Positions 51,029 to 57,880 of a DNA stretch of 64,000 bases are shown here, one piece after another. The translations under genes were made by a program, and so were the position numbers. Numbering within the stretch: the stretch's first letter is position 1; each line of letters begins with the position of its first letter. This stretch comes from an uncultured Holophagae bacterium (GTDB lineage: Bacteria > Acidobacteriota > Thermoanaerobaculia > Thermoanaerobaculales > Sulfomarinibacteraceae). Location of the stretch: the NCBI GenBank assembly GCA_963844865.1, contig CAWJPY010000020.1:48298-112297 (forward strand), given 5' to 3'. The notes under the pieces were generated by a model. It was not told where the DNA came from, did no database searches, and saw only the letters and a list, made by a program, of their open reading frames with translations.

Positions 51029-51202
51029 ACGGCGGGCGGAGCGTGCGGGTGATCGGTCGCACAGCCGGGGAGGAGGGTGCGGGCTACAGTGGGTTGGACA
51101 GGATCGACTCGGGCGTGCGAGGGCTTGCGGCGCGCACGTTGGCACGATCGGCGGCGCGCGCCGGCGTCGGACCGGCGGCGGCTTTGCCAGGGAGGACCTT
51201 CA

Positions 51203-51934
51203 GTGGCACAGGCGGTGCGACGCGCCCTCATCATCCCGGCGCGAGAGGACGGCGAAACGGATCTCTACCGGCGGCTCTTGCCGGCCCTGGGGAATCTCGA
51301 GTGTGAGGCGTCCCGGCTGCCGGGGGGCGTCAGCCCCTTCCAGGAGGTGGAGCGCACCTCCTACGATCTGGTGATTCTCGGGTATCCCCTCCAGCGCTGC
51401 GAGCTGCCGGCCCTCCTCAAGTCCATCCGGTGGCGGGAGTCGTCCTGCCGCAACGCAGCGGTGCTGGTGCTCGCCGAACGCATCGCCCTCTCCCGGGTCA
51501 AGCTGTTGGTGAATCGGGGCATCAACCGTGTGCTCCCCGACGACGCCACCGACTGGGAGCTGGAGAGCGTCCTCCGAGACCTCTTGAAGGTCGAGCCTCG
51601 ACTGGACCTCTCCCTGCCGGTGAAGCTGGAGCTGTGGCTGGCGGGGAAGACCGAGCGTGTCGTCGCCCAGTGCGACAATCTCTCCGCCTCGGGCATGCTG
51701 ATCCGTGGCCGTTGGGAGGTGGAGATCGGATCTCCCGCGACCTTCGAGCTCACGCCCCCCGGGCAGCCCAGCCCCATCCGCGGCACCGCGGAGGTGGTGC
51801 GCCCGACGCTGCGCGAGCGCGAGGGTCTCGTCGGATTCGGGATCCAGTTCGTGTACTTCGAGGGTGACGGGCAGCAGCGGCTGGCGTCGTTTGTCAACCG
51901 CCAGCGAGCGTCTGCTTCCGGTTCCGCGCGGTGA
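51203..51934 (+). CDS. PilZ-domain protein with a receiver-like N-terminal domain
   Basis: GTG 51203 follows GGAGGA. The C-terminal part ..RLDLSLPVKLEL..AQCDNLSASGMLIRG fits the (D/N)xSxxG PilZ motif. Confidence 0.6.
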   Translation: MAQAVRRALIIPAREDGETDLYRRLLPALGNLECEASRLPGGVSPFQEVERTSYDLVILGYPLQRCELPALLKSIRWRESSCRNAAVLVLAERIALSRVKLLVNRGINRVLPDDATDWELESVLRDLLKVEPRLDLSLPVKLELWLAGKTERVVAQCDNLSASGMLIRGRWEVEIGSPATFELTPPGQPSPIRGTAEVVRPTLREREGLVGFGIQFVYFEGDGQQRLASFVNRQRASASGSAR

Positions 51935-52025
51935 TCGGGTCCCGCGGCCGGCCCGTGGGCCGGGTGCGGCAGAGCCTGAGCCGCCGGCTTGACCGTTGAC
52001 GGCCGACGGAGCAGACTCGCACACC

Positions 52026-53309
52026 ATGAACGAGCTGGTCCTGATCGTGGACGACGAGCCCGGAATCCTCACGACGCTGTCGGGCATCCTGAGCGACGAG
52101 GGGTACCGCACCCTGACCACCACCAGCGGCGAGGAGGCGATCGAGCTCTACCGCCGTGAGCATCCGGACGTGGTGTTCCTGGACATCTGGCTGCCGGACC
52201 GCGACGGTCTCGAGACCCTGGAGGCGCTGCGCCAGCTGGACCCGGGGGTGGCGGTCATCATGATGTCCGGGCACGGCACGTCGGCGACGGCCGTGAAGGC
52301 CGTCAAGATGGGCGCCCACGACTACCTGGAGAAACCGCTCTCCTACGATCAGGCCGTCGATGCGGTGGAAAGCGCCCTGGGCAGGAGGTCCGGTGACCTG
52401 CACGCCAACGGCCTCGCGCAGGCCGCGGGCGACCGCGCCTACCAGCAGCCCCCGCGGCTGCCACTGCTCCAGCCCACCGACCGGCCGCAACGCACCATCC
52501 GCTCCAGCTCCGTGATGTACGGGCTCGGGCTGCATTCGGGCATGCGCACCGGGATGGTGATGCAGCCCCTGCCACCCGACAGCGGGATCCACTTCCTGAC
52601 GCTGCCTCGGGGGACCGAGATTCCGGCCCACATCACGTCGGTGGCGGAGACCGACTATGCCACCACCCTCACCGGCGGCGGCGACAGCATCCGCACCGTG
52701 GAGCATCTCCTGTCGGCGCTCCACGCCTACGGGATCAGTAACCTCCTGATCAAGGTCCACGGCGAGATCCCCGTGCTCGACGGGTCGGCCCTGGAGTTCT
52801 GCGACCACTTGGACGAGATCGGCGTCGTGGATCAGCCCGCTCCCCGCCAGGAGATCGTCATCGACCGCGTCTATGAGGTCGGGGACGGGGACCGGACGCT
52901 GTCCATCGAACCAGCGGACTCGTTCTCCGTGTCCTACCTGCTGCGTTACCCGCCGCCGGTGGGGGAGCAGCGCCACGACTTCACCCTCGATGACCCCGCG
53001 GAGTACCGGGCGCGGATCGCGCCGGCGCGCACCTTCGGCTTCATGCGTGACCTGAAGATGATGAACGAGCTCGGGCTCGGCTCCGGGGGTCGCCTGGACA
53101 ACTTCGTCCTGGTGGGCGAGGACGAGGTGATCAACACCGAGCTCCGGTTTCCAGACGAGTTCGTCCGTCACAAGATCCTCGACATCATCGGGGATCTCTA
53201 CCTGTTGGGCTACCCGGTCCGGGGGAGGGTGACGGCGCGCCTGACCGGCCATCGCCACAACATCGCCCTGCAGCGTGCGATCCTCGAGCAGGCCGGCCAG
53301 AGGGCTTAG
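52026..53309 (+). CDS. lpxC: response-regulator receiver domain fused to UDP-3-O-acyl-GlcNAc deacetylase (REC-LpxC)
   Basis: REC: LVLIVDDEPGIL..FLDIWLPDRDG..MSGHG..EKPL. LpxC: GLGLHSG, TVEHLLSAL, FVRHKILDIIGDLYLLG and TGHRHNIAL, so the metal and catalytic residues appear present. Confidence 0.85.
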   Translation: MNELVLIVDDEPGILTTLSGILSDEGYRTLTTTSGEEAIELYRREHPDVVFLDIWLPDRDGLETLEALRQLDPGVAVIMMSGHGTSATAVKAVKMGAHDYLEKPLSYDQAVDAVESALGRRSGDLHANGLAQAAGDRAYQQPPRLPLLQPTDRPQRTIRSSSVMYGLGLHSGMRTGMVMQPLPPDSGIHFLTLPRGTEIPAHITSVAETDYATTLTGGGDSIRTVEHLLSALHAYGISNLLIKVHGEIPVLDGSALEFCDHLDEIGVVDQPAPRQEIVIDRVYEVGDGDRTLSIEPADSFSVSYLLRYPPPVGEQRHDFTLDDPAEYRARIAPARTFGFMRDLKMMNELGLGSGGRLDNFVLVGEDEVINTELRFPDEFVRHKILDIIGDLYLLGYPVRGRVTARLTGHRHNIALQRAILEQAGQRA

Positions 53310-53434: not shown

Positions 53435-53788
53435 TCAGGCGTGCGGGTTGAGGAGGCGCCATGTCATCGCCCGCACGCGGTCGAAGAGATCCAGGGCGGT
53501 CTGTGCCCAGGATCGATTGACGGCTCCTGTCGCGGCGAGGAGCCGCAGGTGGGTGTCGACCTCTTTAGCGGAGGCATACGCAATCCGCCAGTGGTGCAGC
53601 CGGTCCCGACCGGACCGACCGTGGCCTTCCGCCAGGTTCGCGGGCACCGAGCTCGCCGAGCGAATCACCTGGTCGGCAATCGCCTTCAGGGGCGCCGGCA
53701 ACCTCATTACGAGCTTGATAGCCCCGCTCGCAGCTTCGAGCGCCAAGCGATGAGCAGCAAGGCCGGGTTGGGTGTTGGCATCGAGCAT
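53435..53788 (-). CDS. four-helix-bundle protein (23S rRNA intervening-sequence protein family; Avd-like fold)
   Basis: 117 aa: MLDANTQPGLAAHRLALEAA..ADQVIRSASSVPANLAEGHGRSGRDRLHHWRIAYASAKEVDTHLRLL... SD GGAGGTG lies 4 nt before ATG 53788. Confidence 0.8.
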   Translation of the reverse strand: MLDANTQPGLAAHRLALEAASGAIKLVMRLPAPLKAIADQVIRSASSVPANLAEGHGRSGRDRLHHWRIAYASAKEVDTHLRLLAATGAVNRSWAQTALDLFDRVRAMTWRLLNPHA

Positions 53789-53974
53789 GGTCACCTCCGG
53801 GTCGTTCATGCCTCCTCTCACAAGCCGGTGGCCGACCCATGTCAAGGGTGCTTCGCAGCTGCACAGCAGCTGCGAAGCACCGGACCATCGGTCCGGCCCA
53901 CCCTCGGCGAGGGTGGGCCCTTTACCTGGGCCGGCCACCGGCTACGTTCTCGGACGAACGACCCGGAGATGACC
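53789..53974 (-). promoter_or_regulatory. ~185-nt fold-back that can sequester the SD and start codon of the four-helix-bundle gene
   Basis: On the minus-strand RNA, GGUCAUCUCCGGGUCGUUC (53974-53956) can pair over 19 bp (one G-U) with GAACGACCCGGAGGUGACC (53807-53789). Perfect internal hairpins are GTGCTTCGCAGCTGC-aca-GCAGCTGCGAAGCAC and GGCCCACCCTC-ggc-GAGGGTGGGCC. Confidence 0.6.
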
Positions 53975-54573: not shown

Positions 54574-55235
54574 CCCGTCTCCGGGTCGACGCGAAGGATG
54601 ACGTTGCTGCGGGCATCGACCGGTACCAGCTCATGGATGCCGGTGCCGTCGTGCTCCAACACCAGGGTGCCGTCCTCCCGCACCTCCCGGACCGTGGCTC
54701 CCGTGCCATTGCGCAGCTCGACCCGATCGCCCCGCTTTGGCCTCCAGGAGGCCAGCTCGGGGATCCGCTCGGGACCCCAGATGACGCGGGCTTCGACGTC
54801 GTCCAGGGTGGCTGCCAGGCGAGCCGTGACCAGATCCAGCACGGCGACCGACGAGTAGCGGACCTGGACGGGAGCATCGGGCCCCAGGTGCAGCAGGATG
54901 AGACCGTTGCCGCCGTTCCCCCGCGCGCCGTGGTGCCGCCTGGCCTCGGCCAGCTCGTCGGCGTCCCGCTGCAGCGCTGCCAGGTAGCCGGCGTACTCGT
55001 CCTGGTCCAGAAGCTGCTGGCGCAGGAGCACCCGGACCGAGCCCTGGTGGACCGAGACCACGGCGACGCGGTTGTCGAACAGGGTCACCCGCACCTTGCG
55101 TCCGGTCACCTCCAGGGTCCGCTCAACGATGGGAGACGGGGCCTGTTGAGCGTTCGCGTCTCCCGGGAGCAGGATGGCGGCCGTCAACGCAAACAGGACG
55201 AGGAGCGGGCCTCCGCCCCATCCGGTGATCCTCAT
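54570..55235 (-). CDS. secreted hypothetical protein
   Basis: MRITGWGGGPLLVLFALTAAILLPGDANAQ signal peptide. ATGA overlaps on both sides, consistent with an operon with the CCA-enzyme gene and rsmD. Confidence 0.55.
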   Translation of the reverse strand: MRITGWGGGPLLVLFALTAAILLPGDANAQQAPSPIVERTLEVTGRKVRVTLFDNRVAVVSVHQGSVRVLLRQQLLDQDEYAGYLAALQRDADELAEARRHHGARGNGGNGLILLHLGPDAPVQVRYSSVAVLDLVTARLAATLDDVEARVIWGPERIPELASWRPKRGDRVELRNGTGATVREVREDGTLVLEHDGTGIHELVPVDARSNVILRVDPETG

Positions 55236-57880
55236 GGAGCCTCCCCTCCCTCCTGGTCGTGGCGTGTGGCGGCCAGAGCATACTCCAAGGCTTGCTCCGG
55301 CACGATCTCGCCGTCCGCGATGGCGTCCCGGGTGCGGCGGAGGGCGAGCCCCACGTGAGGGCCGGGAGACACCCCGGCCGCCAGCAGGTCCTTCCCGCTC
55401 ACGGGTGGTTTGAGCCGGACCGCCGTCACGAGCGCGTCGGCGACGCGACGGCGGAGCTCCATCTCGAGTCCTGCCATGGCCAGCAGCACAGCCTCCGGGC
55501 GTTGCCGCTCCACGACGCCCACCAGGAGGGAGCGCAGCACGGCTCGGCGTGCGGCGGCCCGAATCACGGCCACGCTCGCGGGCAGCTCGAGGATGCGCCG
55601 CCGCTGATCGCCGGCCAGGGACAGGCGCGCCGCCAGTCGCCGCTCGGCGCCGGGGGCGGCGTGGAGGGCGAGGCCGCCGAGCATGAGGAGCCAGGGCAGG
55701 GGGGAGGGGCCCAGCCCCTCCAGGAGATACCAGTGGAGCTGCCCCTCCAGGGCGAAGAGATAGGAGCGGGTGTCCTCGGTCCACGCAACGTCGGGCACGA
55801 TGGCAGGCAGCACCTCCAGCTCGGCGAGCAACGCCACCGCCCGGGTGGGATGGGGCTCGTCGAGCAGATGAGCCAGCTCCCGGCGCAAACGTTGGCCCGA
55901 GATGCGGTCGAACACCCCTTCCCGGACCGCCGTGCCGATCAGGTGGCGCGTGTCGGAGGCGATGGTGAAGCCGAGCCGCCGGGCGTAGCGAACGGCGCGG
56001 ATGGCCCGGGTCGGATCGTCGATGAACGACAGCGAGTGCAGGACTCTGATCTCCTTCTTCTGCAGGTCCTTGCGCCCGCCGAAGAAGTCCACCAGTTGGC
56101 CGCGCCTCTCCCCGGAGAGGCCGACGGCGAGGGCATTTACGGTGAAGTCGCGACGGTACAGGTCCTGGCGGATGAGGGAGGTGGCCACCTCGGGCAGCGC
56201 GGCCGGGGTCCGGTAGAACTCGGTGCGCGCCGTGGCGACGTCCACCCGGTTGCCGTCCGGGAGGATCACCACGGCGGTGAGGAAGGGTGCGTGGGGGTGG
56301 CAACGACCCTGGCAGGCTTCCGCGAGCGCCTTGCCGTAGGCGATGCCGTCGCCCTCCACCACCAGGTCCACGTCCTCGTTGGAGCGCCCGATGAGGAGGT
56401 CGCGCACCATGCCCCCCACCAGGTAGACCGCGGTCTGCTGGCTGTCGCCCACTCGCTGAGCGATGCGCAGCACGTCGCGCACCCAGGGGGGGCCGACCTC
56501 GTCGAGGAGGCGGCTCACCCGCTGGGTGACGGGCCGGGCCCCGGCCATGCGGTGGTCCAGCGAGGCGCCGCGGGTGCGCTGGCCTTCGAAGAGCCGCCGG
56601 AACAGCTCCATCCGGGTGACGATGCCGACGGGGCGATCCCCCTCCTGGACCACGACGAACCGGTGCGAGCGCTCCAAGAAGAGGTCCCGGAGCTGACGCA
56701 ACGGCGTGGTCCCGGCCACCGTGGGCACGTCCGGCTGCATGACCGCCGTCACCGGCCGGCCACCCATGCCGTGGCTGACGGCGCGGTCCAGGATCTGGCG
56801 GGTCACCATGCCCGTGAGCTCACCAGTCGTCGGGTCGCGGACCGGCAGTGCGTTCACCCGGAGCTGGTTGATCCGCTCCTTGGAGGCGTCCACCGTGCTG
56901 CCGGCGTCCACCGTGAAGATGTGCCGGACCGCGATGTCGGCGGCGGAGACCGGAGGCGGCATCTCCTCCTCGAGGAGGTGCAGCACCTCCTCCCGCAGCT
57001 CCACCGGCATGCGCCCGGTGACCCTCGCCGACGCCGCGGTGGGGTGGCCGCCGCCACCGAGGCGCTGGGCGACACGTCCGACGTGCAGGCCCTCCAGGCG
57101 TGAGCGCAGGATCAGGTTGACGTGGGGCGGACGCACCAGCATCACCACGCCCACCGGGATCTCGAACGTCTCCATCCAGCGGTGGACGACGTACGCCGCC
57201 TCCTCGTGGTAGCGCTCCACGTCCACGATCGCCAGGGAGACCGGGACCTCGTGGACCACGATCTCCTCGGAGGCGTCGACGATGGCGTTCAGGAGCTGGA
57301 GCTGATCGGGCGCCAGCGTCTTCATCACCCAACGCCGCACCCATTCGAGAGAGCCGCCCTGCTCCAGGAGGCGGGCCACGACCCGGAGGTCGGCGGGCGT
57401 GGTCTCGCGATAGGCGAGGCCTCCGGTGTCCTCGTAGATGCCGAGGAGCAGCAGCGAGGCTTCCTCGGGGGTCGGGGGGAGCCCGCTCTCGTCCAGGAGC
57501 TGGGCGACGATGGTGCAGGTGGCACCCACCGGCCGCGACACGACCTCCCGGGCACCGAGCTGATCGGCCTCGGTCACGTGGTGGTCGATGAGTGTGACGG
57601 GACAGTCGTCGCGCCGGATGAGCTCCCACACCTCGCCCAGACGGGCCGGGCTCCGGGTGTCCACCACCACGGCGTGCTCGAGGGTCTCCCGGCGCGCCTG
57701 GCGCAGCTTGAGCTCCGGGTAGGGGAAGTTGGTGTCGGCGACGAAGCGGCGCACAGCCGCCTCCTGGGATCCGGGGAACAGGACCCGGTAGCCGGGGTAC
57801 AGGCGCACCGCACAGACCGCGGCGGCGAAGGCGTCGAAGTCTGCCGACAGATGGGTTGTGATGACCCGCACGGGGCTCAT
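55232..57880 (-). CDS. multidomain tRNA nucleotidyltransferase/poly(A) polymerase family protein (DHH-DHHA1, CBS pair, CCA-adding head)
   Basis: LIDHHV, GGGGHPTAAS, two CBS-like segments, GGMVRDLLIGRSNEDVDLVVEG and RRDFTVNALA. Confidence 0.8.
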   Translation of the reverse strand: MSPVRVITTHLSADFDAFAAAVCAVRLYPGYRVLFPGSQEAAVRRFVADTNFPYPELKLRQARRETLEHAVVVDTRSPARLGEVWELIRRDDCPVTLIDHHVTEADQLGAREVVSRPVGATCTIVAQLLDESGLPPTPEEASLLLLGIYEDTGGLAYRETTPADLRVVARLLEQGGSLEWVRRWVMKTLAPDQLQLLNAIVDASEEIVVHEVPVSLAIVDVERYHEEAAYVVHRWMETFEIPVGVVMLVRPPHVNLILRSRLEGLHVGRVAQRLGGGGHPTAASARVTGRMPVELREEVLHLLEEEMPPPVSAADIAVRHIFTVDAGSTVDASKERINQLRVNALPVRDPTTGELTGMVTRQILDRAVSHGMGGRPVTAVMQPDVPTVAGTTPLRQLRDLFLERSHRFVVVQEGDRPVGIVTRMELFRRLFEGQRTRGASLDHRMAGARPVTQRVSRLLDEVGPPWVRDVLRIAQRVGDSQQTAVYLVGGMVRDLLIGRSNEDVDLVVEGDGIAYGKALAEACQGRCHPHAPFLTAVVILPDGNRVDVATARTEFYRTPAALPEVATSLIRQDLYRRDFTVNALAVGLSGERRGQLVDFFGGRKDLQKKEIRVLHSLSFIDDPTRAIRAVRYARRLGFTIASDTRHLIGTAVREGVFDRISGQRLRRELAHLLDEPHPTRAVALLAELEVLPAIVPDVAWTEDTRSYLFALEGQLHWYLLEGLGPSPLPWLLMLGGLALHAAPGAERRLAARLSLAGDQRRRILELPASVAVIRAAARRAVLRSLLVGVVERQRPEAVLLAMAGLEMELRRRVADALVTAVRLKPPVSGKDLLAAGVSPGPHVGLALRRTRDAIADGEIVPEQALEYALAATRHDQEGGEAP

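Follow-up and report, generated by a model that had tools for sequence, protein, structure and literature searches.

A receiver domain of NtrX descent is fused to the only LpxC of an acidobacterial genome, with an orphan NtrY as its likely kinase

The only LpxC found in the acidobacterial genome analyzed here is part of a fusion protein, REC-LpxC, in which the receiver domain (REC) of a response regulator precedes the deacetylase. Lipid A synthesis is controlled at LpxC, which is also a major target for antibiotics. The anatomy of REC-LpxC, its status as sole copy, the descent of its receiver from NtrX, the pattern of gene co-loss at the ntrY locus and the promoter elements are shown by sequence and comparison. 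That NtrY is the kinase, that phosphorylation changes the output of LpxC and that it activates the enzyme are inferences. Taken as a whole, an NtrX-derived REC-LpxC under phospho-control by NtrY is the account toward which the evidence tips, and no experiment exists for any member of the family.

The gene lies in a window of 64,000 nucleotides, the whole stretch of DNA that was analyzed, and its features are collected in Table 1.

Table 1. Features of the REC-LpxC gene and its upstream region, in window coordinates
Feature	Position	Strand	Remarks
PilZ-domain gene	51077..51934	+	upstream neighbour, kept in closest relatives only
-35-like hexamer TTGACC of the fusion gene	51989..51994	+	conserved upstream of 13/20 fusion genes
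-10-like hexamer CAGACT	52012..52017	+	8 nt before ATG; conservation
REC-LpxC coding sequence	52026..53309	+	427 aa plus stop, stop-free frame
Receiver domain (REC), residues 5-114	52038..52367	+	Pfam PF00072 Response_reg, E 1.8e-31
Phospho-acceptor Asp53 codon	52182-52184	+	within receiver domain
Linker, residues 123-154	52392..52487	+	alignments, AF2 model
LpxC deacetylase domain, residues 155-420	52488..53285	+	Pfam and TIGR00325

An earlier note, made from the sequence alone, had described a canonical receiver followed by a full LpxC domain with its catalytic and zinc-binding motifs, and both claims held. Besides the match to PF00072, the receiver has the acidic pocket D9/D10, D53, S81 and K103 in register, and its AF2 model shows the (beta-alpha)5 order of elements. 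The LpxC domain matched PF03331 over positions 1-267 of the 268 in the profile (Pfam; E 6.3e-84, 282 bits with a cut-off of 27) and passed the NCBIfam lpxC equivalog TIGR00325 with 244 bits against a cut-off of 187. The motifs quoted in the note are present, and alignment with the P. aeruginosa LpxC (5u39) identified the catalytic Glu-His, the Thr, the His-Lys-x-x-Asp zinc motif, the second Asp and the general-acid His. The zinc ligands (two His and one Asp) are thereby all accounted for, as are the catalytic residues Glu, His, Thr, Lys and Asp. Across 51 aligned fusion proteins, which are 30-89% identical, the receiver residues D10, D53, S81 and K103 were invariant and D9 and E11 nearly so; E226, H227, H382, K383, D386, D390 and H409 of the LpxC domain were likewise invariant, and T336 nearly so. 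The possibility that the receiver might lack its phospho-acceptor Asp was thus not borne out. From sequence and comparison we infer that both halves are functional, the deacetylase activity and the phosphorylation being themselves inferred.

The linker, which had been estimated at about 50 aa, is roughly 30 aa long here. Its sequence differs between lineages, and in close relatives it ends with a PPxLxLL-like motif. In the AF2 model of the full-length protein (mean pLDDT 91.5, pTM 0.75), both domains were predicted with confidence, as were linker residues 141-154, and residues 126-134 appeared disordered (pLDDT <50). A complex prediction of the receiver (1-125) with the LpxC domain (150-427), each from one alignment, scored 0.20 with the mark at 0.32 and gave no verdict either way on docking. 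The earlier note had also considered that the fusion might be an artefact of a missed stop or frameshift between two genes. This can be dismissed because homologues are colinear with REC-LpxC over its entire length, and the occurrence of the fusion at full length across many genomes shows that it is real. An alternative TTG start at 51996 falls within the predicted promoter and is unlikely to be the true start.

REC-LpxC was the single LpxC match in this genome (4.74 Mb, 93% complete), and the search for a second, stand-alone lpxC brought up no other. The genome also encodes lpxD and lpxA (contig C5), lpxB (C21) and lpxK (C6) of the Raetz pathway. Within the limits of a 93% complete genome, REC-LpxC is therefore its only committed-step enzyme of that pathway. 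The full-length fusion occurs in 31 of the 41 genomes of the same order, at 66-78% identity, and is the sole LpxC match in 24 of these 31. Stand-alone LpxCs, 40-46% identical to the fused LpxC, were found in 17/41 genomes of the order, and seven genomes have both. In an even sample of the phylum, which included the unpublished genomes G064, G191 and G089 (none with the fusion), 27 of 401 genomes encode it, distributed over eight families of the same class and three families elsewhere; the three unpublished genomes enter into no other result given here. Furthermore, the fusion is the sole LpxC in 22/23 additional fusion genomes from nine other families. By the names of its homologues, the group belongs to Acidobacteriota/Thermoanaerobaculia. 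A contig scan that left out the lineage of this genome and was swamped by ordinary LpxC matches revealed a few fusions in 'Deltaproteobacteria' and Nitrospiraceae metagenome-assembled genomes (MAGs) and no cultured host of the fusion. The fusion is common in metagenomes, and no characterization of it was found in the literature searched; the concern that it might be both common and already characterized therefore applies only in its first half. As a separate observation, the stand-alone LpxCs of two genomes that also have the fusion (G012 and G027) form long branches.

Where does the receiver come from? Its best NCBIfam match is NtrX (NF051870). In the receiver tree, fused and NtrX receivers formed one clade with support of 96/94, the fused receivers being supported by 94/84 and the NtrX receivers by 100/97, and the acidobacterial short forms were nested among long forms. 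These long forms came from a search over 1.8 billion representatives for REC-LpxC proteins, which recovered the short REC-LpxC together with at least 15 clusters of proteins of 650-736 aa. The long forms, found in other phyla, consist of REC, sigma54 AAA+, AAA lid, HTH_8 and LpxC, in this order, and middle forms consist of REC, HTH_8 and LpxC. One long form was labelled NtrX by its source. Named members derive from 'Deltaproteobacteria' MAGs, Nitrospinota, Candidatus Entotheonellia and Spirochaetota, and one ESM Atlas cluster is mostly Binatota. The AAA+ domain of the long forms lacks GAFTGA and the Walker B Glu, both of which are retained by the free acidobacterial NtrX. In a tree of 134 LpxC domains, all fused domains fell into one clade (SH-aLRT 99) against 73 stand-alone LpxCs, and within it the long and short forms interleave, implying at least five separate shortenings.

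The protein studied here retains only REC and LpxC; Pfam detected no AAA+ or Fis-type HTH domain. Lacking both, it is a descendant of NtrX rather than an NtrX, as sequence and comparison show, and we read it as the minimal remnant of an ancient in-frame NtrX::LpxC fusion from which AAA+ and HTH have since been lost. The direction from long to short rests on the architecture; the root of the tree is itself no proof. The opposite direction would need AAA+ and HTH to be re-inserted between REC and LpxC in the exact order of NtrX, which is not credible. A point against our preferred explanation is that fused and NtrX receivers differ at alpha-1 positions 15-17.

The progressive decay of domains in this family, with AAA+ degenerate and AAA+ and HTH repeatedly lost, could also suggest that the receiver is an unphosphorylated vestige of the NtrX fusion with only a structural or solubility role. 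We regard this as very unlikely. The four receiver residues D10, D53, S81 and K103 never vary among the 51 proteins, even at 30% identity, and D9 and E11 hardly do; over that same span the AAA+ motifs decayed. Moreover, the receiver is the sole part of NtrX that is never lost in complete members of the family. A receiver kept for phosphorylation therefore remains our preferred reading.

Fused and stand-alone genes also differ in their promoter elements. Of the 20 fusion genes compared, 13 share the upstream pattern TTGACC-N17-18-(C/G)A(C/G)ACT-N6-8-ATG. No Shine-Dalgarno sequence precedes the fusion ATG, and since the -10-like hexamer sits so close to it (Table 1), the mRNA is probably leaderless. 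Conservation and the match to the consensus make it likely, with transcription starts unmapped, that the fusion is transcribed from its own sigma70-like, housekeeping-type promoter. An operon with the upstream PilZ gene is unlikely, as the conserved promoter lies within the 91-bp gap between the two genes. Stand-alone lpxC is preceded in 17/17 loci by a sigma54 -24/-12 element, TGGCACG-N4-YYGC, situated 25-30 nt before its Shine-Dalgarno sequence and start codon. Allowing one mismatch at most, this element was absent from all 19 scannable HD_5/DUF4390 gaps of fusion-only genomes; the genome-wide background at this threshold is 0.0017 per 80-nt window. The sigma54 promoters are predictions from conserved consensus matches without mapped transcription starts. 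At loci of one family (f2), TGTGG-N7-9-CCACA repeats are present farther upstream than the sigma54 element, where an activator would be expected to bind, and these are possible, no more than candidate, NtrX-like activator sites without binding data. At six loci (L053, L058, L060, L032, L066 and L067), the repeats and a third half-site, CCACAG, lie 60-100 nt upstream of the sigma54 element.

The locus of stand-alone lpxC provides evidence on the kinase. In 16/16 intact loci the order is lpxC-DUF4390-ntrY-ntrX-TPR with an HD_5 gene divergent from it. The kinase encoded there is NtrY-like, with NtrY_N, HAMP, PAS, HisKA and HATPase domains, and adjoins an NtrX-like bacterial enhancer-binding protein (bEBP). 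The lpxC-DUF4390-ntrY-ntrX synteny extends to other families of the class, and the NtrY-like kinase is single-copy in 40/41 genomes of the order. All 22 fusion-only genomes of the order, including this one, have the divergent HD_5 gene and DUF4390-ntrY without lpxC and ntrX, followed by TPR in the 19 genomes in which TPR was detected. The seven genomes with both LpxCs retain the complete lpxC-DUF4390-ntrY-ntrX locus. One genus is intermediate (G026 and G038): it has the fusion and also retains ntrX together with the sigma54 promoter. What remains of lpxC at the original position in G026 (L059:4693-5367) is only 27% identical and probably a decaying relic, and the contig of G038 (L057) ends before the old lpxC position. 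Likewise, no NtrX adjoins the NtrY-like kinase in 18/20 additional fusion genomes that belong to other families. In the present genome, ntrY is intact (G000 C6:467217-469382; 721 aa; HAMP, HisKA, HATPase), with 36 bp between its stop codon and the TPR gene. On the NtrY tree, the pattern takes no fewer than two ntrX losses and three lpxC losses. The co-loss may therefore have occurred repeatedly, in two to three independent events, and an independent-pairs test of ntrX/lpxC co-loss did not reach significance with so few events.

Since lpxC and ntrX were lost and DUF4390-ntrY was kept in fusion-only genomes, NtrY is likely to be the kinase, and the search for a cognate kinase thus led to an orthologue on another contig and not to the kinases near the gene. 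The kinase-contact residues point in the same direction: at these 11 positions, the fused receiver reads GITLILPLSYD and the NtrX pattern is GIL[LV]ILPLSYD, which ranks the fused receiver first for NtrX likeness among the 47 receivers of this genome. The phosphorylation itself is inferred from the co-loss pattern and these residues. The runner-up at the contact positions, with nearly the same score, is the receiver of a REC-ECF-sigma protein of 321 aa with Sigma70_r2 and r4 (G000 contig C5:70193-71158; L186:4194-5159, +). It is full length in only 3/41 genomes, this one and its two closest relatives, which rules it out as a general replacement of NtrX, and its receiver was not NtrX-like in a careful receiver tree.

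Could another donor phosphorylate the receiver, NtrY serving a different regulator? The candidates would be the kinases 11-17 kb upstream, some other orphan kinase or acetyl phosphate. In favor of this, the fusion never adjoins ntrY in the order (here they lie on different contigs, ntrY on C6 and REC-LpxC on C20), the genome contains dozens of receivers and kinases, and the REC-ECF-sigma protein has similar kinase-contact residues. Against it, no nearby kinase travels with the fusion, NtrY is intact without an adjacent regulator in about 40 fusion genomes, and the REC-ECF-sigma protein is too rare, as noted above. The earlier note had implied a link to the signaling genes of the neighbourhood, namely two kinases and a bEBP, which together with a single REC occupy 34.8-41.4 kb of the window. 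That link failed: no linkage is conserved, the neighbouring receivers are unrelated to the fused one, and we rejected these genes as partners. The PilZ gene, also pointed out in that note, is kept only in close relatives. Gene neighbourhoods were rebuilt by applying a crude GC3-based gene caller to genome regions; outside close relatives, that of the fusion shows no conservation, which makes the fusion an orphan regulator. We thus consider another donor unlikely and retain NtrY as the preferred kinase.

We propose the following mechanism. In the ancestral arrangement, which relatives still have, lpxC heads a sigma54-dependent operon, lpxC-DUF4390(PlrP-like)-ntrY-ntrX, so that NtrY and NtrX would set the level of LpxC by transcription. 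In this genome, the stand-alone lpxC and ntrX are gone, and a sigma70-like promoter of its own would drive the fusion gene. An envelope-related signal would be sensed by the DUF4390 protein and NtrY, and the retained orphan DUF4390-NtrY would most likely phosphorylate Asp53 of the receiver. LpxC would then be modulated as a protein, through either its activity or its stability, with the cell's housekeeping LpxC serving as the output domain of a response regulator. The suggestion in the earlier note that LpxC is under two-component control is thus supported by comparative evidence, the phosphorylation and its effect on the enzyme being inferred. We lean slightly toward activation rather than repression: the only effect open to a bEBP at a sigma54 promoter is activation, so that the ancestral sign was positive. 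The sign remains uncertain, however, because the alphaproteobacterial NtrYX represses lpxC. A bolder reading, which we consider slightly less likely than not, is that an envelope sensor, the PlrP-like DUF4390 protein with NtrY, phosphorylates the committed enzyme of lipid A synthesis across a whole Gram-negative lineage, and that this loop repeatedly displaced sigma54/NtrX control and the tailed stand-alone LpxC. If true, no earlier case of two-component control acting on LpxC itself would be known, and a regulator would here have become part of its own target.

The last step of the mechanism could be of another kind. Phosphorylation may set the abundance or location of LpxC rather than its catalysis, for instance by a phospho-dependent delivery to a protease that replaces the lost C-terminal tail. 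REC-LpxC ends 7 residues past the LpxC domain, without the tail of stand-alone LpxC. The C-terminus lies 12-20 residues after the catalytic His in all 20 fused LpxCs examined, whereas all 31 stand-alone acidobacterial LpxCs have an additional tail of 30-40 aa, which in the order of this genome ends with small non-polar residues. Enterobacterial LpxC is controlled by proteolysis (PMC12444477), and the E. coli LpxC degron for FtsH is known to be a non-polar C-terminal tail (ref. B22 in PMC3333781). On the other hand, nothing shows the acidobacterial tail to be a degron, and receiver-enzyme fusions such as CheB and PleD are known to act on activity. We consider this alternative possible but rather unlikely; it shares the kinase-to-receiver step with our preferred explanation, from which it differs only in the last step.

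Control by phosphorylation of the NtrX-derived receiver would have both precedents and differences in known systems. NtrYX affects lpxC transcription in Rhodobacter sphaeroides and Caulobacter (PMC7240162, PMC12444477), and the DUF4390 protein PlrP is the third component of a subset of NtrYX systems, PlrP-PlrS-PlrR of Bordetella (PMC13001219). The fused receiver groups with those of NtrX, this genome keeps DUF4390-ntrY, and NtrYX is already tied to lpxC expression and the cell envelope in the two former organisms. However, the known effect of NtrYX on lpxC is transcriptional, indirect and repressive, whereas REC-LpxC has no AAA+ or HTH, its output is an enzyme and not transcription, and its gene is away from ntrY. 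In Desulfovibrio vulgaris, lpxC is the one mapped target of the regulator DVU2934, whose operon also encodes a kinase and an HD-GYP protein (PMC3333781). DVU2931/DVU2934 is thus likewise a two-component system that serves lpxC alone, with an HD-GYP protein at its side, and the ancestral acidobacterial locus resembles it in having a sigma54 promoter before lpxC, a kinase, a bEBP and the divergent HD_5 gene. It differs in binding DNA upstream of a separate lpxC, as opposed to the covalent receiver here, and orthology to DVU2934 is not established.

In CheB, PleD, WspR and RpfG, as in REC-LpxC, a receiver at the N-terminus is joined through a flexible linker to a catalytic domain at the C-terminus, and phosphorylation-dependent enzyme control would be expected by analogy. 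The output of REC-LpxC is, however, an unrelated zinc amidase that acts in lipid A synthesis, and evidence for an autoinhibitory contact is lacking. Control by FtsH/LapB/YejM in E. coli relies on a C-terminal degron and a protease (PMC12444477, PMC13333357); compared with that target, the fused LpxC has no C-terminal tail and has gained a receiver. LpxC-FabZ proteins (NF009667) are likewise natural fusions of LpxC to a second domain, but their partner is a C-terminal metabolic enzyme instead of an N-terminal signaling domain, and REC-LpxC reached only 193 bits with this model (cut-off 465), over the LpxC part alone.

Reviews describe the control of LpxC by proteolysis, transcription and metabolite feedback (PMC12444477, PMC13333357). 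The words 'receiver' and 'fusion' do not occur in these two recent reviews of LpxC regulation, and neither a description of REC-LpxC nor protein-level phospho-control of LpxC was found in the literature searched. The REC-LpxC family would add direct phospho-control to the known regulation of LpxC. With a likely sensor named, it becomes testable what NtrY-type kinases sense and why they are tied to the envelope. The order offers a natural series, with the ancestral operon, both systems or the fusion alone, in which a transcriptional circuit was replaced by a covalent one.

Several minor observations concern the loci described. The gene that is always divergent from the lpxC or DUF4390-ntrY operon encodes GAF and HD_5 domains and is HD-GYP-like (L185:3845-5419; G000 C6:465052-466626, -). 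It echoes the HD-GYP regulator of the lpxC-regulating operon of D. vulgaris and hints at a link to c-di-GMP. In one family of the class, a third arrangement was seen (L069; G322:C1:1446800-1461700), in which stand-alone lpxC is directly followed by TPR, with no ntrY or ntrX within 7 kb on either side. In the present genome, lpxA and lpxD (G000 contig C5:387013-389330; L012-L014) are each split over two adjacent frames, which match family positions 1-183 and 182-253 for lpxA and 1-92 and 90-324 for lpxD; these are either frameshifted genes or assembly indel errors. Directly downstream of the fusion and convergent with it, at window positions 53435-53791 (-), lies a small gene whose product belongs to the 23S rRNA intervening-sequence proteins (PF05635, E 1.2e-15). 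Farther on, at 55232-57880 (-), an 882-aa protein is encoded with DHH, DHHA1, CBS and poly(A) polymerase/CCA-adding head domains, whose gene is kept beside the fusion in the closest relative.
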